Assembly: GCA_963827685.1 (NCBI GenBank)
Contig: CAWHBU010000002.1
Coordinates: 1,184,001 to 1,248,000 of the forward strand
DNA length: 64,000 nucleotides
From: an uncultured delta proteobacterium
GTDB lineage: Bacteria > Desulfobacterota > BSN033 > UBA1163
Direction of reading: 5' to 3'
A program made the translations under genes and the position numbers. Positions within the stretch are counted from its first letter, which is position 1. Every line of letters begins with the position of its first letter. This document shows positions 34,652 to 43,142 of the stretch, one piece after another. Under the pieces are notes generated by a model that was given only the letters and a program-made list of their open reading frames with translations, was not told where the DNA came from and searched no databases.

Positions 34652-35407
34652 TTAAAATATCATCGAGACAGGAATTCCCTTCTTCTCAAAACGCTCTTTC
34701 AACTCCGTTCCAACCAGATGAAAATAATCCTCTTCCAAATACTGATCCAGCTTGGCTTTGCGATAAATCGCCTTCACCTTGTTCGGGTAATTCATTCGAT
34801 CGATAAGCACCTCGTCAATCAACCCATCCAGCATCGCTACCAGCGGTTTCGGATCTAAAGGAAGCATCGGGCCGATGAAAGCATAGGTCCGAATCTTTTC
34901 TTGACGAAGGGCTCTCAGGGCTTCAACTCGAGACAGAACAGAAGGGGAACAGGGTTCAAAGATCTTCTTGATCCCCTCATCATGAGTTGTAACGGAGAAG
35001 CCTACTTCAATTCTCTTGAACTGTTTAAACAGATCAATGTCTCTCAGACAAAGAGGTGACCGGGTCAACAAATTTACTGAAAGTTGAGCATCCAGAAGAG
35101 CTTCCAAACATTTTCGAGTCAGTTGATATTTTTTCTCGATAGGCTGATAGGGGTCGGTCACCGTACTGAGGGCCACGACCCCTTGCTTCGCCCTCTTTAA
35201 CTGCTTTATCAGCAGGGGAGGGGCATTCACCTTAACATCGATGAACTCCCCCCATGGCTCCAGATGACCGGTAAAACGCTTCATGAAACTGGCATAACAG
35301 TACCGGCAACCATGCCCGCACCCGACATAGGGGTTGATACAGTAATCAAAACCAGAAATGGCTGTCTTGGTCAGAATGGTCTTGGCAAAGATCTCTTTGA
35401 CTTTCAT
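34652..35407 (-). CDS. Radical SAM protein, spore photoproduct lyase-like family
   Basis: INPYVGCGHGCRYCYA, TDPYQPIE. Confidence 0.88.
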   Translation of the reverse strand: MKVKEIFAKTILTKTAISGFDYCINPYVGCGHGCRYCYASFMKRFTGHLEPWGEFIDVKVNAPPLLIKQLKRAKQGVVALSTVTDPYQPIEKKYQLTRKCLEALLDAQLSVNLLTRSPLCLRDIDLFKQFKRIEVGFSVTTHDEGIKKIFEPCSPSVLSRVEALRALRQEKIRTYAFIGPMLPLDPKPLVAMLDGLIDEVLIDRMNYPNKVKAIYRKAKLDQYLEEDYFHLVGTELKERFEKKGIPVSMIF

Positions 35408-35457: not shown

Positions 35458-35641
35458 TGAGTTCAAGGGTTCTAGTGAAATGATTGAAATCACAATAAAA
35501 TAAAAGTCCCGTTAGGGAAAAAACATTGAAGATTAGGAATTTGATAAGGTTTAAAAAGTATAGGGGAAATTGGAAGAATATTTATAACCTAGAACCCTTC
35601 ACCCCTGCCTACCGGCAGGCAGGCTGGGCTCCTCGAACCCT
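35458..35641. repeat. Inverted 8 bp periodic repeats with 20 bp palindrome insert
   Basis: GAGTTCAAGGGTTCTAG...AGAACCCTTCACC[35604-35623]CTGGGCTCCTCGAACCC. Confidence 0.65.
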
Positions 35642-35649
35642 TTTGTGTT

Positions 35650-36408
35650 TTATTGAACAGGTAGGTTAAATAAAGGCGAGTGAGAATTAGAAGTCCCTTT
35701 TAAAGGAAAGGTCCCATTAGATTGAGAATAGACCTGCTGAAAGAAACCAAAAATATCTATCTCTCCTCCTTTTGCTTTCTGCCAGAGATCATAAAGGTGA
35801 TGAGTGGTAATCAAAGTCATATTGTGCCGGCTTAAGAAATGGCTCAACTCTTTGGAGATATGACTCACCTGGCCTCTTTCAGAAAGTGGGAGGCGGATAT
35901 GGGTGCTCGCAATAATCAAGGATTTCTCGTTCTCTCTTTTTTCTTTCTCAAACTGCAAAGCCCGGTTGATCTTGGGATGGTTTCCTTCGACCTCCCCTTC
36001 ACTCATCAAAATCTGTACTCCGAAAGCCATGTGGGTCTCGGGAATTTTAACAATGCGATCCACCGATTGGTAGTTGACACCGGTTGATATCTTGAACCCC
36101 AGATCCTTGAAGATGGAATGAACGGTATCCATTAATAACAATTCACTTTTTGGCCAGAGCAGCGATTCAATAATAGAAAAATCCTGATCTCTGATCGCTG
36201 TCGATTCCTTCTTCGTGGCCTTGTCGATTTCTGACTTCAAAAAACTCTTCCGCGCCGTCTTTTTCTCGGAGCTTCTTTTTTCAATTCTGCTTACTACAAG
36301 CATCGCAATCAGGCAACCCAAAGGGATGAAGAGCTTCAGCTCTTCGGAGAATTTGAGAGCGCTAAAGATCGCAAGAACTGCAAGCAAAAGCTGTAGTATC
36401 CCTAACAT
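35650..36408 (-). CDS. Hypothetical membrane-anchored protein
   Basis: Two N-terminal hydrophobic helices, then a soluble alpha/beta domain (FKDLGF...VDRIV...GVQI). Confidence 0.7.
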   Translation of the reverse strand: MLGILQLLLAVLAIFSALKFSEELKLFIPLGCLIAMLVVSRIEKRSSEKKTARKSFLKSEIDKATKKESTAIRDQDFSIIESLLWPKSELLLMDTVHSIFKDLGFKISTGVNYQSVDRIVKIPETHMAFGVQILMSEGEVEGNHPKINRALQFEKEKRENEKSLIIASTHIRLPLSERGQVSHISKELSHFLSRHNMTLITTHHLYDLWQKAKGGEIDIFGFFQQVYSQSNGTFPLKGTSNSHSPLFNLPVQ

Positions 36409-36469
36409 CTGTTCCCCATCACTTTAAAAATTAAATAAAAACAATAAGTTAAACCACATTTATACTCTG

Positions 36470-36486
36470 AGCAATTTCTATACCAA
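36470..36486 (-). promoter_or_regulatory. sigma54 (-24/-12) promoter
   Basis: TTGGTATAGAAATTGCT (GG-N10-GC), ~60 bp upstream of ATG 36408. Confidence 0.7.
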
Positions 36487-36658
36487 ATTTGAAAACGTTA
36501 AAAACTGCTTATGATTTCAGCTGATTAGCTAAATATCACTTTAGCGAAGACTCTGTTCAAATATGACAATATTTCATGATTTGAACGAAAAGTGACATAT
36601 TCTGACACAAAAAGGCACAATTTTTTGGAAAATAAGGGGTGCAATTTAAGGTCTGCGG

Positions 36659-37651
36659 TTAATGGGATGACGGCGCAAAAAGATATTCAACCGTTCGATT
36701 CAACATCCTCGCTCCCTTCACTTCTGTTTCGAATAGAGGGACGATCGCTCTTACCTTGTCCCCGAATATCTTCCAAATCTCTGCCATATGTTCGTCCTGC
36801 ATCTGAATTCGGTTGAGGACAAACTCCACAGTATCTTTTCCGACCTGATCCTTTTGAATGACTCCGTTGACCACCACACCACCAACAGGAATTCCGAATT
36901 CATGGAACCAGTTAATGAAGCGGGTGATGACAGCAATGGGAAGGCTCTCGGGGAGTGTCACGAAAAAGAAAGCCGTGAGGGCTTCATCGGTCAGGAGGTT
37001 TTTCGCACTGCCCATTCTATCCTTGAAACTTAAGAGGTAATCCAGGAGAGGGTCCTTTTTCTCTTTTTTCGAGAAAGAGAGGATTTCCCTTAACGACTTT
37101 GCTTCCTCTCGGCTCTTCAGCATCTTCTCCACCCAAAGGGAGTAGACCTTCGACATTCCGAGAAGGCGTCTCGCATTCGCTGTGGGGGCAGTATCGAAGA
37201 CGTAAAAATCATATTCATCCTTGAACATGAGATCCACCATATTTTCAAACATAGCCGATTCTTCGAAGGCAGGATTCATCGTCGCCGATTCGATGAAATC
37301 TTCTGCTTTGGTCGTGATATCTGCAAATTTGAGAAACCAGTTGATCTTCTCTCGGATTTCTCGTTTGGACCGTTCGATCGTATCCCGTGTATCGATCTCG
37401 AAGGCATAGCATTTTTCTTCGTCGCAGACGATGGCTGCTCTTCCAAAGACATCTTTTTCTAATAAGTTAGAAAGGCTATGGACGGGATTGGTCGATGCCA
37501 GTAAAGTCCTCTTCCCCTGTTTGGCCGACCAGAGAGCTGCTGCCCCTGCCATGACGGTCTTTCCAACACCTCCTTTCCCCCCGAAAAAGATATATTTCAA
37601 ACGAGGGTGATCTTTTAAGAATTTTCCCATACTGATCGTAATTTGGTCCAT
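36659..37651 (-). CDS. ArsA/Get3-family ATPase, paralog 2 (switch I D->N)
   Basis: GKGGVGKT, STNPVHSL, DTAPTAN. Confidence 0.9.
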   Translation of the reverse strand: MDQITISMGKFLKDHPRLKYIFFGGKGGVGKTVMAGAAALWSAKQGKRTLLASTNPVHSLSNLLEKDVFGRAAIVCDEEKCYAFEIDTRDTIERSKREIREKINWFLKFADITTKAEDFIESATMNPAFEESAMFENMVDLMFKDEYDFYVFDTAPTANARRLLGMSKVYSLWVEKMLKSREEAKSLREILSFSKKEKKDPLLDYLLSFKDRMGSAKNLLTDEALTAFFFVTLPESLPIAVITRFINWFHEFGIPVGGVVVNGVIQKDQVGKDTVEFVLNRIQMQDEHMAEIWKIFGDKVRAIVPLFETEVKGARMLNRTVEYLFAPSSH

Positions 37652-37710
37652 TTTTAAACTCCCGCCTATTGCTTTTTTCTGCTTACTGCTTTCTGCCTAC
37701 TGCTTACTAA

Positions 37711-38697
37711 TTAAAAATTCCCAAACATCGCCTTGGCCATTTTTCCAATCATTGGAAGGCCGGTTACATCTCGTTCCATCTCAGGCACAGATGCTAAAAT
37801 CTGTTTATCAAAAGTGGTGTCAATCACCTTCAGGTAATGTTCCTCCATCGTGAGACGATTTTTTAAATATTCGGGAATATTTTGGTCCCTCAATCCAAGA
37901 GGCAAAACCCGATTAATGATATATCCACTTAAAGGAACGTCAAACTTAGCAAAAAGTTCTGCCGCCTTTAAGGTGTCCTTAATGATCATCTCCTCAGCGG
38001 TCAAAACAAAAAAGAAGGCTGTCTTTTCCTTATCGGTCAGGATCCTTGAGGATTTGTTGATGCGTTCTTTGATATAAAGAAGTTCTTTCAAGATGGCGTC
38101 TTCATCCAATTCTTTTTCTCGCTGCATCACAGCTGCCACCTGATCATACTCCCTCATCTGTTCTCGGAGAGCAGTGATCTTACTGATCCACGCATCATAG
38201 ACAGACGCCATACTTAGGTAGTAAAGGGCATGACCTAACGGCACCAAATCGTAAATGTAGTAGTCGTAGCCTCCTTTGACGACAATATCCACCACCTCAT
38301 CAAAAATGGCGCTTTCCTCCATCGCGGGCTCTGCCGCAGCAGCCTGAATATAGCTCTCGATCTCTTCTGGAATCTTATTCATTCCATACATATCGAAGAT
38401 CTTCTGCCTAATCTCCTGCTGATATTCCTTCACACGACGGTCGGCGTCAATCTCTTGTGCATAGAGGTTGGGAATGATCTCTATTGGCCCCTTGCCAAAG
38501 ATATCCCTTTCGAAGATATCGGTTAACGAGGCCTGCGGATCAACAGAGAAAACCAAAACCTTTTTCCCTTTTTTGGCCAAATAATAGGCCGTAGCAGCGG
38601 AGAAAGTAGTCTTTCCCAAACCTCCCTTTCCGCCAAACATGATGTACCGCCGATCCGGATACTTTTCAAATATATCTGCTAATGGAATGTCAATCAC
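37711..38697 (-). CDS. ArsA/Get3-family ATPase, paralog 1
   Basis: GKGGLGKTT, SVDPQASL, DLVPLGH, INRV. Confidence 0.9.
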   Translation of the reverse strand: MIDIPLADIFEKYPDRRYIMFGGKGGLGKTTFSAATAYYLAKKGKKVLVFSVDPQASLTDIFERDIFGKGPIEIIPNLYAQEIDADRRVKEYQQEIRQKIFDMYGMNKIPEEIESYIQAAAAEPAMEESAIFDEVVDIVVKGGYDYYIYDLVPLGHALYYLSMASVYDAWISKITALREQMREYDQVAAVMQREKELDEDAILKELLYIKERINKSSRILTDKEKTAFFFVLTAEEMIIKDTLKAAELFAKFDVPLSGYIINRVLPLGLRDQNIPEYLKNRLTMEEHYLKVIDTTFDKQILASVPEMERDVTGLPMIGKMAKAMFGNF

Positions 38698-38703
38698 CCC
38701 TTT

Positions 38704-38810
38704 CTCGGTTATCGGGTTACTTGGGTTATTGGGTCTTTTGGGTTTCTTGTGTTTAATGATTTCATAACTCTAAAAACCCTATGAACTCAATAAACCCGAT
38801 GGACCCAATA
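38704..38810. repeat. Inverted 9 bp periodic array
   Basis: GGGTTACTTGGGTTATTGGGTCTTTTGGGTTTC...AACTCAATAAACCCGATGGACCCAATAAA. Confidence 0.7.
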
Positions 38811-38826
38811 AATGTTCGTTGGCCTT

Positions 38827-39102
38827 TCAGGCCAAGCCATCCGTAAAATCTTTTTCCCTCAGCATTCTCCGCTTCCAGGTAGAAATCTGGGGAACTACAT
38901 AAGGCAATAATCTTAATGAATAGTAAGGGGGTAGAATCGGCACACCCAGCATGTCTCCCATGGTGATGAGGATGAAGAGGTGCTCCATGCTCGCCCTCGT
39001 CTTCAAGGCAAATCGGTACGAGTCGTGAGCTGCCATCCCATAGACGAACTCTTTAACCGCTTGGAAAAATCCTGCTTTTTTCTTTTTCTGCTCTTCCGTC
39101 AT
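38827..39102 (-). CDS. Small CstA/ArsA-associated protein
   Basis: LFILITMGDMLGVPILPPYYSLRLLPY..W; lies between cstA and the arsA-like genes. Start ATG 39102 follows GGGAGG. Confidence 0.75.
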   Translation of the reverse strand: MTEEQKKKKAGFFQAVKEFVYGMAAHDSYRFALKTRASMEHLFILITMGDMLGVPILPPYYSLRLLPYVVPQISTWKRRMLREKDFTDGLA

Positions 39103-39132
39103 AAAAAAGCATCCTCCCAAAAATTATTTCAC

Positions 39133-39216
39133 GTCACGCCGGAATACCTGCCTGCTAACAGGCAGGCATTACCGACGGACGATAATTGTTTCGCCCCCAG
39201 TAAATGGGGACGCTGC
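39133..39216 (+). repeat. REPIN-like element copy 4 (degenerate) with palindrome insert
   Basis: GCCGGAATA[CCTGCCTGCTAACAGGCAGG]CATTACCGAC...CGCCCCCAGTAAATGGGGACGCTGC. Confidence 0.75.
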
Positions 39217-39419
39217 ATACTACGAAGCAATACTATAACACAAAAATTCTCGGTCTGCCTATCCCTTTGCGAGCAAACATCACTTCTATTAAAATTTCCC
39301 CTCCCTCCCTTTAATATCTACTAAAGGGGAAAAGGGGGGATTATTCGCTTTCACCGCTTCGAGCCTTTAACTTTACCTGCCCGTCGGGCCTTCACGCAAC
39401 CGGGAACTTCGAACTTCTC

Positions 39420-41105
39420 TTATGCCTTTGCAGGCGCTCCTTCTGCTCGTATAACTTTGTAACGGCTAAAGGCCTTCAGTCCTTCCACCGCCAGAATGAT
39501 CGCGGCGATGACCAGGAAGATTGCAACCAAAATCATCAGTGTGTTCCCCACCAGGGCCTGTCCCTTAACCGCCCCTAAATAAACCTGTTTGGAAAGCCTC
39601 CAGGCGGTAACCACCAGGGCAGCCGTGGTCGTGAAAAACATAAAAATCATCGGGTAAAAGGTCCATCCATAAGGTTTCCCCTGAGACATCAACCACGCTG
39701 TCATCAGCAACAAGGCCAGGGAGGCCATCAATTGGTTGGCTCCTCCAAAAAGTATCCAGAGGTATTGCCACCATCCTGTCAAGATCAGGATCAGTGTCAG
39801 AAGGCTGGCAATAATGGTCCCAATATGGACATTCTTAAAGATAGGGCTGATATCGCCCAACATTTCAGAAGTGGCCACTCTCATGAATCGAATCACAAGC
39901 TGCAGGATGGTAACTGCCAGGACGATTAACATAACGCCACCATAAGATCTCCCGACGGCAGCTGGAAGCCCCAATGCCCCTAAGAATTTCGACACTCCTG
40001 CTGAAAATACGCCAATAGGTCCTTTAGCAATGGCGGCCGTATATTCCGAAGACGAGGCGAAAATCGTTCCAGCAATGACCAGAGCGAACACGCCAAGCAT
40101 CATCTCCACAAACATTACACCGCCACCTACTGGACGGGCATCTGTTTCGTACTCTAATTGCCTGGCTGTACCTGAACTTGAAACAATACTGTGCCATCCG
40201 GATACTGCCCCGCAACCGATGGTTACAAACATGATGGGCCAAAGAGGCCCAATTCTGATATTAAAGCCTGTATAAGCGGGTAGTGTAAAATCAGGATGGA
40301 GCACAAATACTCCGATGATCCCAAATAAGAGACCCAAGAAAATAATGTAGGAAGTGACATAGTTAATGGGAAGGGCAAATCTCCAGATCGGCAAAACCGC
40401 TGCAAAGTAGCAGAAGACAAGCGCAGCGATCGCCCAAACAAGTCGACTATTGGCAATATCCGCTCCAAGGATACTGTCAGAGGGAGCAACCGATCCAAGC
40501 CATATCCCGAACAACGAAATGGCGACTGTGATAACAGTGGTCAGAATAATATCCTTCTTCCAGCGATAGATCATCTGCCCAGCAAGAACTCCAGCGCCGG
40601 TGAAAAAAAGCCATGCCATGGGAGAACTTTTCGCCCCGATGGCTGCATCGACAACAATATTTCCAAAGGCGCCGGCGATGAGAAGCAGAAAGAAATAGAT
40701 AAAGCAGAGTAGAACGATCCGAGCCCGCGGCGAGATCAATTTGTAGCTTAATCCGCCAAAGGAAGCTCCTTCATTTCGCATGGCCACCACGGCGCTCGAG
40801 TAGTCATGAACCCATCCAATGAATAACGCACCAAGGCAGAGCCACAGCAAACAGGGGAGCCACCCCCATTGAATGGCAATGATTGGACCAACGACTGGTG
40901 CTGCGCCGGCAATGGACTTGAATTGGTACCCGAACAGGATGTTCTTACTGGTGGGCATGAATTCCACCCCATCCATATACATCTTGGCCGGAGTGGCCCT
41001 CTTCGGGTCTGACTTTACAATTTTCGTATCCACGTACTTTGCATAGAAGCGGTAACCGATAAAAAAGACGATAAACCCTATGATCATAACAACAACTGAA
41101 TTCAT
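39420..41105 (-). CDS. cstA: Carbon starvation protein A family transporter
   Basis: TPA..DGVEF, SIAGAAPVVGP, GWVHDY, CGAVSGWHS, LFGGANQL, many TM helices. Confidence 0.93.
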   Translation of the reverse strand: MNSVVVMIIGFIVFFIGYRFYAKYVDTKIVKSDPKRATPAKMYMDGVEFMPTSKNILFGYQFKSIAGAAPVVGPIIAIQWGWLPCLLWLCLGALFIGWVHDYSSAVVAMRNEGASFGGLSYKLISPRARIVLLCFIYFFLLLIAGAFGNIVVDAAIGAKSSPMAWLFFTGAGVLAGQMIYRWKKDIILTTVITVAISLFGIWLGSVAPSDSILGADIANSRLVWAIAALVFCYFAAVLPIWRFALPINYVTSYIIFLGLLFGIIGVFVLHPDFTLPAYTGFNIRIGPLWPIMFVTIGCGAVSGWHSIVSSSGTARQLEYETDARPVGGGVMFVEMMLGVFALVIAGTIFASSSEYTAAIAKGPIGVFSAGVSKFLGALGLPAAVGRSYGGVMLIVLAVTILQLVIRFMRVATSEMLGDISPIFKNVHIGTIIASLLTLILILTGWWQYLWILFGGANQLMASLALLLMTAWLMSQGKPYGWTFYPMIFMFFTTTAALVVTAWRLSKQVYLGAVKGQALVGNTLMILVAIFLVIAAIILAVEGLKAFSRYKVIRAEGAPAKA

Positions 41106-41220
41106 GATCTTACCTCCTTGTGGTTATAAAACCACCCTTGAGATATTGATGAATTCCCCCTACCCATATTCCTTACTCATGCGCGACGCGTTCTCACCTC
41201 CTTTAATTCTGAATGACCTA

Positions 41221-41248
41221 ATTATATGCAAATAATTCTTTATGTCAA
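41221..41248 (-). promoter_or_regulatory. Consensus sigma70 promoter of the cstA operon
   Basis: TTGACA-16 nt-TATAAT on the minus strand. Confidence 0.8.
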
Positions 41249-41263
41249 CCCTCCGATTTACTC

Positions 41264-41373
41264 GGGTTGACCCTGCACTTCGATAGACTCGGTGTCCTGA
41301 GTTTGCCGAAGGAAGCAGCGCTTGCTTCACCATCCTAAACGACAAAGCTGAGCGCCGTCGAATGGGTCAAACC
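41264..41373. repeat. Nested palindromic repeat (CTTCGA..CTC / CTGAG..CGAAG family)
   Basis: GGGTTGACC...CTTCGATAGACTCGG-TGT-CCTGAGTTTGCCGAAG...GAAGCAGCGCTTGCTTC...GGTCAAACCC. Confidence 0.6.
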
Positions 41374-41378
41374 CAAAA

Positions 41379-41555
41379 TTATTCGAAACACCCCAGCTGG
41401 CACTGGCTGATTTTGACCTTCATCTCATTCAAGATCTTTCCCATCTCCCTCTTAGAAATTCCAAAATCTTCAGCGATCTTAAAGCACATGGCACAGGGAA
41501 GTTTTCCGTCCTTGGCTTTTTCCTTGATCGCTTCCTCTATCTTTTTTCGATCCAT
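41379..41555 (-). CDS. Small Cys-containing hypothetical protein
   Basis: GKLPCAMCFKIAE...KISQCQLGCF. ATG 41555 follows GGAG. Confidence 0.75.
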   Translation of the reverse strand: MDRKKIEEAIKEKAKDGKLPCAMCFKIAEDFGISKREMGKILNEMKVKISQCQLGCFE

Positions 41556-41566
41556 AATGAGCTCCG

Positions 41567-42058
41567 TCACCCCCTCCCTTTCCCTCCCCCCTCGAGGGGG
41601 AGGGGTGGGGTGGGGGGCCTGGAAATATAAATCCCATATTCAAATCCATCCACCAACGCCAGAAAGGAGGCTTTATTAATATTCTCCGAAAATGCTTTCA
41701 CCCTCCACGCCTCTTTTCCATTGCTAAACAGAATCTCCACCTCCACACCCGCTGCGGTTCCGGCACCCGGATCGAAGATTCTGGAACTGAAATCGACCAG
41801 TTTCACCCCATCAATCTCAGGGAAGATCGATTTGAGTGATTTTTTCAATACCTTGGCTAAGGCATCCACCGGGCCCACCCCTGTGTCTGCTTCGTGCATC
41901 TCTTTTCCATTGGCCCGAAGCATAATGGTTGCCTCAGGTTGGATGCCATCGTCAATCAGTCGATAATTACCGATGATCTCAAAATGGGGTTTATAGCTGG
42001 CCATCGACCTTAAAAGATTTAGAATCTTTGTCGCATCCTTGATTTTTTCCTCGACCAA
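41567..42058 (-). CDS. Stand-alone LeuA/CimA-type regulatory (LeuA_dimer) domain protein
   Basis: EATIML...EADTGVGPVDALAKVL...LVDFS.RI...SENINKASFLALVDGFEY. Start uncertain (TTG 42058 or further upstream). Confidence 0.75.
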   Translation of the reverse strand: MVEEKIKDATKILNLLRSMASYKPHFEIIGNYRLIDDGIQPEATIMLRANGKEMHEADTGVGPVDALAKVLKKSLKSIFPEIDGVKLVDFSSRIFDPGAGTAAGVEVEILFSNGKEAWRVKAFSENINKASFLALVDGFEYGIYISRPPTPPLPLEGGGKGRG

Positions 42059-42263
42059 TGTTTCCCCCTGTAAAATAATGCCCATTACAATCGGATTTAT
42101 ACGAAATGTCAAGAAAAATTATAACATGAAAAATTATAACATGGGAATCGACGAAAGATGCTATTTGACCGTGACTCGTCTCCGTGTTATTTAAAGTAAA
42201 GTAAAAAATGTTTTACGGTCAAGGGCGCGAGACACGGATCACATTTTGGAGAGGATTGCTAAA

Positions 42264-43142
42264 ATGAGACTCGGCGGGGTCATGCCACCCATTACCACAC
42301 CTTTTCAAGATGGGAAATTGGCTTCGAATAAACTCAAAAATAATTTTCAAAAATGGAATAAAGCAGGTCTTTCCGGTTATCTCGTCCTTGGATCAAACGG
42401 TGAGGCGGTCTATTTAAATGAGAAAGAGAAAATAAAAGTCGTCGAAGTCTCAAGGGCATCTATCCCCAGATCAAAGATTATGATGGTTGGAACAGGGATG
42501 GAATCGACTCAGGAGACCATTCGCTTTACCGGTCAAGTGGCGAAGATGGGGGCGGATATCGCTCTCGTAGTCACTCCATCCTATTTCAAGGGATCGATGA
42601 AGCCCCAGATTTTATATGATCATTTTGTTGCTGTCGCAGAATCTTCCCGAATTGAAATTCTCCTTTACAACGTCCCACAATTTACTGGAATCAACTTAGA
42701 GTCGGAATTGGTCGCTAAGCTTTCTGAACATTCCAATATCGTCGGGATGAAAGACAGTTCAGGGAATATCGGTCAATTGAGTGAAATCATTCATCTCTCT
42801 AAGAAGGGATTTGCCGTCTTCGTAGGGTCAGCACCTGTATTCTTCCCCGCCCTTTGCGTAGGGGCGGTGGGCGGAATTCTGGCTGTGGCAAATGTGGTTC
42901 CTCAAGAATGCGTCCAGATTCAAAGCCTTTTTGATAAAGGGAAAATGAATGAGGCCAAGGCATTACAAAATCAACTAACCTCCTTGGCCAAAGCAGTGAC
43001 AACAAAATATGGCATCGGCGGTTTAAAAATCGCGATGGATCTGGCAGGATACTTTGGTGGAAATCCACGACTTCCTTTAAAAAGACCGAGCAAGGAAGCT
43101 GAAGAAGAATTGAAACGACTATTCCTTCATTCGAAAGGTTGA
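42264..43142 (+). CDS. DHDPS/NAL-family aldolase (HOGA-like)
   Basis: TTPF, LGSNGE, VTPSYF, LYNVPQFTG, GMKDSSG (Schiff-base Lys). Confidence 0.88.
   Translation: MRLGGVMPPITTPFQDGKLASNKLKNNFQKWNKAGLSGYLVLGSNGEAVYLNEKEKIKVVEVSRASIPRSKIMMVGTGMESTQETIRFTGQVAKMGADIALVVTPSYFKGSMKPQILYDHFVAVAESSRIEILLYNVPQFTGINLESELVAKLSEHSNIVGMKDSSGNIGQLSEIIHLSKKGFAVFVGSAPVFFPALCVGAVGGILAVANVVPQECVQIQSLFDKGKMNEAKALQNQLTSLAKAVTTKYGIGGLKIAMDLAGYFGGNPRLPLKRPSKEAEEELKRLFLHSKG

Follow-up and report, generated by a model that had tools for sequence, protein, structure and literature searches.

We analysed a 64-kb window (the whole stretch of DNA studied here) from the genome of an uncultured delta proteobacterium (UBA1163; contig CAWHBU010000002.1), which carries at positions 36659..41105 four co-directional minus-strand open reading frames (ORFs): cstA, encoding a CstA-family permease; cstX, encoding a small protein of 91 amino acids (aa); and two genes for ATPases of the ArsA/Get3 family, ATPase 1 (D-type) and ATPase 2 (N-type) (Table 1). 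With cstX beside cstA, single-domain arsA homologues of ~330 aa and no ars genes within ~4 kb, the locus is an ordinary representative of the cstA-cstX-arsA clusters that Castillo and Saier reported in 2010 (PMC2963123). In the cluster passages of that paper, cstA is linked to arsA in 26 bacterial and archaeal cases, of which 24 include CstX, and the cstA-cstX-(cstY)-arsA operons described there resemble the present locus in gene set and order, in the ~90-aa protein, in the ~330-aa single-domain ArsA and in the lack of arsR. The first-pass annotation of this DNA was thus right, as far as those passages go, that such clusters are known and functionally untested. Our main finding concerns the ATPase pair: the aligned switch I position is Asp53 in ATPase 1 and Asn55 in ATPase 2, and this split is conserved across related loci.

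Both ATPases match PF02374 (E 2.1e-69 for ATPase 1, 3.7e-62 for ATPase 2) and exceed the cut-off of 135 bits for the TRC40/GET3/ArsA subfamily TIGR00345 (223.1 and 206.3 bits, respectively); they are 33% identical to each other. Scores fell well short of the ArsA equivalog TIGR04291 (96.1 and 99.4 bits; cut-off 650), of the ArsA model NF041417 (126.6 and 132.3 bits; cut-off 800), and of the BagA/BagB models NF053622 and NF053621 (51.3 and 40.2 bits for ATPase 1, 41.9 and 37.5 bits for ATPase 2; cut-offs 400 and 521). The best relatives in the PDB, aligned over the whole length, were 3ug6 and 3zq6 (E ~1e-54 and 1e-53), which we take to be archaeal Get3 homologues; their PDB titles read 'arsenical pump-driving ATPase'.

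Motifs were read from the translations, from alignments to 3ug6 and 3zq6, and from a seven-sequence alignment. ATPase 1 combines Walker A GGKGGLGKT with switch I SVDP and switch II DLVPLGH, and ATPase 2 combines GGKGGVGKT with STNP and DTAPTAN; 3zq6 and 3ug6 have STDP and DTAPTGH. Neither ATPase has the CxxC zinc motif, its position being occupied by IPEY in ATPase 1 and TVEF in ATPase 2, whereas 3ug6 and 3zq6 have C-x-F-C. ATPase 1 contains no Cys at all, as do 64 of its 70 orthologues. The switch I and switch II motifs and the lack of Cys in ATPase 1, together with the ORF coordinates, are exactly those given by the first-pass annotation. That annotation had also set arsenic resistance aside, and we concur: the system is not an arsenic pump, because no ars gene lies within ~4 kb, both ATPases score far under the ArsA cut-offs, and ATPase 1 is Cys-free. 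The genes looked for were arsR, arsB/acr3, arsC and arsD, and the ~4 kb on either side was the only part of the genome searched for them.

The same genome encodes two canonical paralogs of these ATPases on other contigs, one on C3 (G000:C3:676572-677480; L084:4567-5511) with STDP, DTAPTGH and CHFC at the CxxC position, and one on C2 (G000:C2:718861-719772; L083:4850-5827) with SSDP, DTAPAGH and CNFH. ATPase 2 itself carries a Cys pair in a VCDExxC motif at residues ~75-80, between switch I and the helical subdomain; exactly two Cys are found in 52/69 of its orthologues and none in 10/69.

To assess conservation, we used CstX as query against a set limited to a single genome for each species; this gave 517 relatives, of which the best 80 loci were kept. 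By record titles these loci are mostly from Thermodesulfobacteriota (Syntrophales, Desulfomonilaceae, Syntrophorhabdales and Syntrophobacterales), the remainder being single Nitrospirota, Spirochaetes, Phycisphaerae, WOR-3 and Hakubella records. cstA was present in all 68 loci with at least 1900 nucleotides (nt) upstream of cstX, and both ATPases followed in fixed order in all 70 loci with at least 2400 nt downstream, with a median gap of 36 nt between the two ATPase genes. Motif counts were made on orthologues with at least 90% query cover and at least 55% identity, plus the window; these are close relatives, 62-95% identical. Co-conservation of the D/N pair had been set beforehand as the test of the first-pass reading, and the pair held throughout: SVDP in 70/70 first paralogs and STNP in 69/69 second paralogs. 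Switch II was as constant, with DLVPLGH in 70/70 first paralogs and DTAPTAN in 68/69 second paralogs (the remaining row is a gap), and GGKGG[LV]GKT was found in all 70 ATPase 1 and all 69 ATPase 2 orthologues. Among aligned orthologues, Asp53 of ATPase 1 is invariant, as is the Walker A lysine in both paralogs. For ATPase 2, the P-loop (G24-T32) is invariant in 29 sequences, and the mean column identity of the protein is 79%; judged from these alignments, the N-type gene is under strong constraint.

The split extends beyond close relatives. A single distant protein (P0256) led to a metagenome lineage of three short contigs, one of which (L138) carries both ATPases; CstX of this lineage is 32-34% identical to that of the window, and its ATPases 45-49%. 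The first ATPase gene of L138 has STDP and DMPPFGH, and the second has SLNP and DTAAVAN; this lineage preserves the split at switch I (D/N) as well as that at switch II (GH/AN).

Clusters with a single ATPase were found in Actinomycetota. A true cory-CC-star protein scored above the NCBIfam cut-off in 21/351 Actinomycetota genomes (including the unpublished G623; sampled around the Hakubella genome), and all 16 widened actinobacterial cory-CC-star loci contained cstA, CstX and one ATPase, with CstX between the other two. These single ATPases carry STDP in 16/16 cases, a switch II of DTAPTGH in 14, DTAPSGH in 1 and DSAPTGH in 1, and no CxxC in any of the 16. A quick maximum-likelihood tree was built from 47 rows: 13 orthologues of each paralog (out of 29 aligned), three distant rows, the 16 single-ATPase genes and both canonical paralogs from elsewhere in this genome. 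In it, the N-type and D-type clades each received a Shimodaira-Hasegawa-like approximate likelihood ratio test (SH-aLRT) support of 99 and were sisters at 94, with the single-ATPase genes outside; branching within the two clades was similar. These results support, without proving, one old duplication of a CstA-linked ArsA/Get3 gene, followed by complementary decay of the two copies.

CstA belongs to PF02554 (450.4 bits, cut-off 27; E 1.3e-134). Against the pyruvate/proton symporter equivalog NF011590 it scored 183.5 bits, with a cut-off of 1188, and the alignment spans only residues 2-348 (the protein has 561 aa, the model 701 positions). Because this score is so far below the cut-off of the E. 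coli pyruvate symporter equivalog, we assign CstA no substrate; characterised CstA relatives import pyruvate or peptides. A sequence search of the PDB returned no solved relative of CstA. An AlphaFold2 model (predicted local distance difference test (pLDDT) 78, predicted template modelling score (pTM) 0.80) gave 117 Foldseek matches at E<=0.001 but low TM-scores (0.3-0.5), the top-listed matches being LeuT, Nramp, NKCC1, KimA and ApcT; on the model, CstA is a predicted LeuT-fold secondary carrier.

The 91-aa protein is the CstX of Castillo and Saier and probably belongs to Pfam DUF7990 (PF25952). Precomputed PF25952 annotation was present on all 120 homologues listed, out of 5202 found (those listed are 75-98% identical), and the three nearest Atlas clusters are 99-100% PF25952 DUF7990. 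Our local Pfam scan gave no PF25952 match even at E<=10, that copy of Pfam not containing the PF25952 model. The family comprises 397 representatives (clusters) at 50% identity and has the conserved core FGDxxGxPxLPPYYSLRLLPYxxPxIxxWKRRxLRERDxTD. With 37.9 bits against the NCBIfam cory-CC-star model NF041419 (E 1.3e-9, cut-off 80), CstX appears by sequence to be a distant relative of cory-CC-star and not an equivalog. A TTG six codons 5' of the cstX ATG would give a protein of 97 aa; relatives begin at the ATG form. CstX-family matches occur in 46/301 sampled genomes of this phylum and in 26/351 Actinomycetota genomes (including the unpublished G623 and G479), and they are rare in the phylum sampled around G303, a genome with Nitrospirota in its record title (2/251 genomes).

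The hydrophobic segment that the first-pass annotation had read in CstX did not hold up as such: the Kyte-Doolittle peak is 1.49 over 19 residues, under the usual 1.6, and the AlphaFold2 model (pLDDT 85) is a helical hairpin (H3-51 and H59-83), not a single transmembrane helix. This also differs from the CstX passages of PMC2963123, which call it a protein with a single transmembrane segment. A 30-residue hydrophobic Pro-rich hairpin lies near the C-terminus and is followed by a basic tail. Foldseek of the model against the PDB gave no match at E<=0.001, and tblastn of CstX against plasmids gave none.

The genome holds three CstX-family genes and only one cstA. The two additional CstX paralogs share 53% and 48% identity with the CstX of the operon and lie outside the window on other contigs: one at G000:C5:357654-357896 (L081:4643-4936, minus strand) among MoCF_biosynth, enoyl-CoA hydratase and radical SAM genes, and one at G000:C4:507551-507802 (L082:4519-4815, plus strand) among TPR and HI0933-like flavoprotein genes. 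These lone copies contradict the statement, in the CstX passages of PMC2963123, that CstX is never found without an adjacent CstA. Among related loci, additional CstX copies in tandem or inverted 3' of the second ATPase are common. Long forms of CstX were also recovered, each as a single record for which read-through or assembly error is possible: a 414-aa protein in which CstX is fused cleanly and in frame to ATPase 1 (P0293), a fragment joining the CstA C-terminus to CstX (P0148), and tandem CstX-CstX proteins of 163-213 aa (among P0283-P0286 and P0121). P0293 and P0148 are weak hints that CstX may serve as a linker. Three further candidate fusions, P0319, P0321 and P0314, were rejected, CstX ending out of frame in each, presumably through frameshifts or errors.

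The gap between cstX and ATPase 1 is occupied in two related loci (L072:6402-7369 and L075:6327-6889) by an antitoxin-like gene and a second small gene. From the ORF translations, the second gene resembles RelE/ParE-type toxins in L075, and L072 has a nucleotidyltransferase-type fusion and a HEPN-like ORF. Large cstX-ATPase 1 gaps, of 746-936 nt, also occur in L066, L074 and L077.

The first-pass annotation had placed all four genes in one operon behind a consensus sigma70 promoter. The promoter stands (Table 1), and an identical perfect site was found in 7 of the 39 related loci having at least 350 nt of upstream DNA; promoter-like sites overall were not enriched (6 observed vs 7.4 expected). 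The gaps between the genes, in order from cstA to ATPase 2, are 317, 129 and 59 nt. Given the strong hairpin within the 317-nt spacer (39103-39419), transcription of all four genes as one continuous unit is only plausible. The spacer has a computed fold of -120.9 kcal/mol (z -5.7 vs 100 shuffles). Its C-run/G-run hairpin recurs at the matching spot in 5/9 aligned spacers (window, L001, L006, L010 and L004), and in L002 and L005 that position is taken by another inverted repeat, also rich in G+C. Another perfect hairpin lies immediately 5' of the cstX ribosome-binding site, and a weak promoter-like site lies inside the spacer. From its sequence, the spacer hairpin may act as an attenuator or partial terminator that governs the level of cstA relative to cstX and the two ATPase genes. 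Positions 35500-42500, scanned against Rfam at E<=1, returned only chance-level eukaryotic and viral families, with no riboswitch or known RNA.

Contigs from RNA libraries (four metatranscriptome libraries from four studies) cover all four genes, mostly as relatives at 88-99% identity; such contigs may contain DNA and prove neither transcription nor a single transcript. One of them spans the ATPase 1/ATPase 2 junction, and two, from relatives whose spacer is shorter, extend from cstX into ATPase 1. Across the four RNA runs, hardly any contig covered bins 39239-39405, which says nothing on transcription of the spacer.

Table 1 Features of the cstA-cstX-arsA locus and nearby ORFs (positions in the 64-kb window).
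Feature	Position	Strand	Description
sigma-70-type promoter	41221..41248	-	TTGACA-16-TATAAT; 12/12 matches; ~115 nt 5' of cstA ATG
cstA	39420..41105	-	CstA-family permease, 561 aa, ATG start; PF02554
G+C-rich hairpin in cstA-cstX spacer	~39298..39339	-	C-run/G-run, then weak T-run
cstX	38827..39102	-	91-aa protein, probable DUF7990 member, ATG start
ATPase 1 (D-type)	37711..38697	-	328 aa, GTG start, ArsA/Get3 family
ATPase 2 (N-type)	36659..37651	-	330 aa, ArsA/Get3 family
252-aa ORF	35650-36408	-	~250 nt 3' of ATPase 2; N-terminal hydrophobic stretch; no Pfam match
radical SAM ORF	34652-35407		downstream of 252-aa ORF
63-aa ORF	41379-41570	-	upstream of promoter; contains Cys; no family
181-aa ORF	41567-42112	-	overlaps 63-aa ORF; only LeuA allosteric (dimerisation) domain

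The ORFs within ~4 kb on either side encode radical SAM, zinc ribbon, TPR, LeuA_dimer, DHDPS, rubrerythrin, UbiE and GNAT proteins. Genes flanking the four are common to only 9-12 of the 80 loci, all of them close relatives, and we rejected the flanking ORFs as members of the module on this ground. The 252-aa ORF follows the cluster in only 10/80 related loci and is probably outside the module; the 63-aa and 181-aa ORFs are common to 11/80 and 9/80 loci, respectively.

Several known systems were compared with the pair. E. coli ArsA-ArsB likewise sets an ArsA-family ATPase with two non-equivalent nucleotide sites beside a secondary carrier whose transport it could make ATP-dependent. There, however, two domains are fused in a single ArsA chain of ~580 aa that carries metalloid-binding Cys, and the carrier is ArsB (or Acr3), whereas here two chains of ~330 aa, one of them Cys-free, accompany a LeuT-fold CstA and always a third small protein. 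Get3/TRC40, with 3ug6 and 3zq6, shares the layout of deviant Walker A, switch I and switch II, but has a CxxC zinc clasp, forms a homodimer from one gene and works with Get1/Get2-type receptors; here there is no clasp, the two genes are unequal and the link is to a permease. The N-type subunit copies the laboratory mutant D57N of Get3. Heterodimeric ATP-binding cassette (ABC) transporters such as TM287/288 and TAP1/2 have one degenerate nucleotide site, so that one composite site catalyses and the other only binds ATP; they belong to a different ATPase superfamily and could serve only as an analogy. BagA-BagB (Rv3679-Rv3680) of Mycobacterium tuberculosis (PDB 6bs3) are reportedly adjacent Get3-like ATPases that form a complex. 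Only their P-loop region aligns with the ATPases here (E 5e-9 to 3e-4), and we set them aside as too distant to be informative, with weak matches only; we know of no link between BagAB and CstA or CstX.

Our literature search turned up no experimental study of these ATPases or of CstX, the 2010 comparative paper being the only one to treat them. Its ArsA passages (PMC2963123) record adjacent ArsA pairs, 31% and 25% identical, in two organisms, state of switch I that 'D can be substituted only by N', and propose that the ArsA homologues energise CstA with CstX as coupler or linker; section 3.2 reports congruent trees for CstA, CstX and ArsA. Neither a division of D and N between pair partners nor a complementary decay of switch II is described in the abstract, in sections 3.2 and 3.12 or in the passages on CstA. 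Searched by term, a review of Get3-like proteins (PMC6593721) contains none of heterodimer, carbon starvation, D57 or paralog. The proposal of an ArsA homologue energising CstA dates from 2010 and is thus less new than the first-pass annotation implied; only the paired catalytic asymmetry is apparently unpublished.

Passages on Get3 in PMC12506534 give D57 as the catalytic residue and describe yeast D57N as binding ATP without hydrolysing it, in line with the statement of the first-pass annotation that this substitution blocks hydrolysis. Taking ATPase 2 as a natural counterpart of that mutant, we put at about 45% the probability that the two ATPases work as an obligate heterodimer in which a single site hydrolyses ATP, and that this dimer acts on the LeuT-fold CstA via the CstX hairpin. 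From the co-occurrence of the genes, the complementary motif decay and the sister-clade tree we infer the heterodimer and its coupling, and with them the choice of active site and the effect on transport; for action on CstA through CstX, the evidence is gene linkage and the 2010 co-evolution trees. Under this proposal, the two ATPase genes would derive from one old duplication, and their products would now function only as a heterodimer. In this ATPase class, the first lysine of the deviant Walker A acts across the dimer; both subunits keep that motif with the lysine, and both sites would bind ATP and close the dimer. Only the site of ATPase 1 would retain the switch I Asp that activates water, and the ATPase 2 site, with Asn, would by analogy with D57N hold ATP unhydrolysed and serve as a latch. 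The CstX hairpin would anchor the ATPase dimer to CstA, and ATP-dependent closing with hydrolysis at a single site would drive or gate CstA, as ArsA does ArsB. A single machine of unequal halves is consistent with several features: neither subunit keeps the zinc clasp, switch II has decayed in complementary ways, the genes stand in a fixed order, and single ATPases are canonical. A predicted complex of ATPase 1, ATPase 2 and CstX, computed with an alignment for each and with CstX set as the partner, gave scores of 0.32, 0.22 and 0.15 (median 0.22) against a mark of 0.32 and weighs neither way.

An obligate pair is not the only arrangement that could be envisaged. Single-domain Get3/ArsA proteins normally homodimerise, and the two ATPases could form separate homodimers with separate jobs, the N-type protein being a non-catalytic ATP-binding scaffold and the adjacency of the genes reflecting shared regulation. 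We hold this to be very unlikely, given that the paralogs co-occur strictly and in fixed order in 70/70 loci, that their motif decay is complementary and not parallel, that they form sister clades with similar internal branching, and that both keep an invariant trans-acting lysine in Walker A. A Get3-like role in chaperoning or targeting is somewhat less remote, and we still judge it improbable. Here the heterodimer would capture CstX hairpins, including those of the paralogs, or nascent CstA, and hydrolysis at one site would release the client, so that the system would serve biogenesis. The hydrophobic Pro-rich hairpin and basic tail of CstX would suit such a client, three CstX-family genes to one cstA (with extra copies common) would mean several clients for one machine, and the closest solved relatives, 3ug6 and 3zq6, are presumably archaeal Get3 homologues; Get3 D57N, too, is said still to bind clients. 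Yet a 91-aa client would need no permease as neighbour, and cstX is linked to cstA in 68/68 loci; moreover, the conserved module across the 80 loci includes no insertase or receptor gene, and the CxxC clasp is missing from both paralogs.

The pair might instead report on energy status, the degenerate site being permanently loaded with ATP, sensing ATP/ADP and opening or closing CstA via CstX without performing work on a gradient. That both subunits deviate, ATPase 1 in switch II and ATPase 2 in switch I and switch II, would suit such a slow switch, and gating by a cytoplasmic ligand occurs in other LeuT-fold carriers among the fold matches, such as KimA with c-di-AMP (as its record title has it). 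The carriers of the cluster are, by record titles, mostly syntrophic or strictly anaerobic lineages, in which ATP-driven uptake would presumably be costly. The fully canonical motifs of the single-ATPase clusters suggest, on the other hand, that real turnover matters in the ancestral form, and the invariance of Asp53 in ATPase 1 likewise tells against pure gating, to which we accord a low probability.

Returning to the heterodimer that drives or gates CstA, several observations weigh against it. Switch II of ATPase 1 is itself non-canonical (DLVPLGH here, DMPPFGH in the distant lineage), so the catalytic competence of this subunit is not assured, and by its motifs the pair may work as a slow switch and not as a motor. 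Nor is CstX clearly transmembrane, with a hydrophobicity peak of 1.49, and neither lone CstX paralog has cstA or arsA nearby, which misfits a simple one-to-one coupler. With a strong hairpin and a weak promoter-like site in the spacer before cstX, cstA may be expressed independently of cstX and the ATPase genes. The tree, obtained by a quick search, has long branches and is rooted at its midpoint, and the archaeal clusters lie outside the set compared here. We also know of no LeuT-fold carrier that is coupled to an ATPase. A bolder form of the proposal is doubtful: that CstA is the first LeuT-fold carrier made ATP-dependent by a two-gene SIMIBI-class ATPase with one catalytic and one latch site, docked via CstX much as Get1/Get2 cytosolic helices dock Get3, and powering or licensing uptake in energy-limited anaerobes.

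The conserved D/N split suggests that the pair is one machine, and the system is easy to test. Should the coupling prove untrue, the locus would stand as a well-conserved example of the cluster described in 2010. If the ATPase does couple to CstA, ATP coupling would extend to LeuT-fold carriers and DUF7990 would gain a function; if the bolder form is true, the ArsA-ArsB principle would be a general way of attaching an ATPase to unrelated carriers, with DUF7990 as the adaptor.

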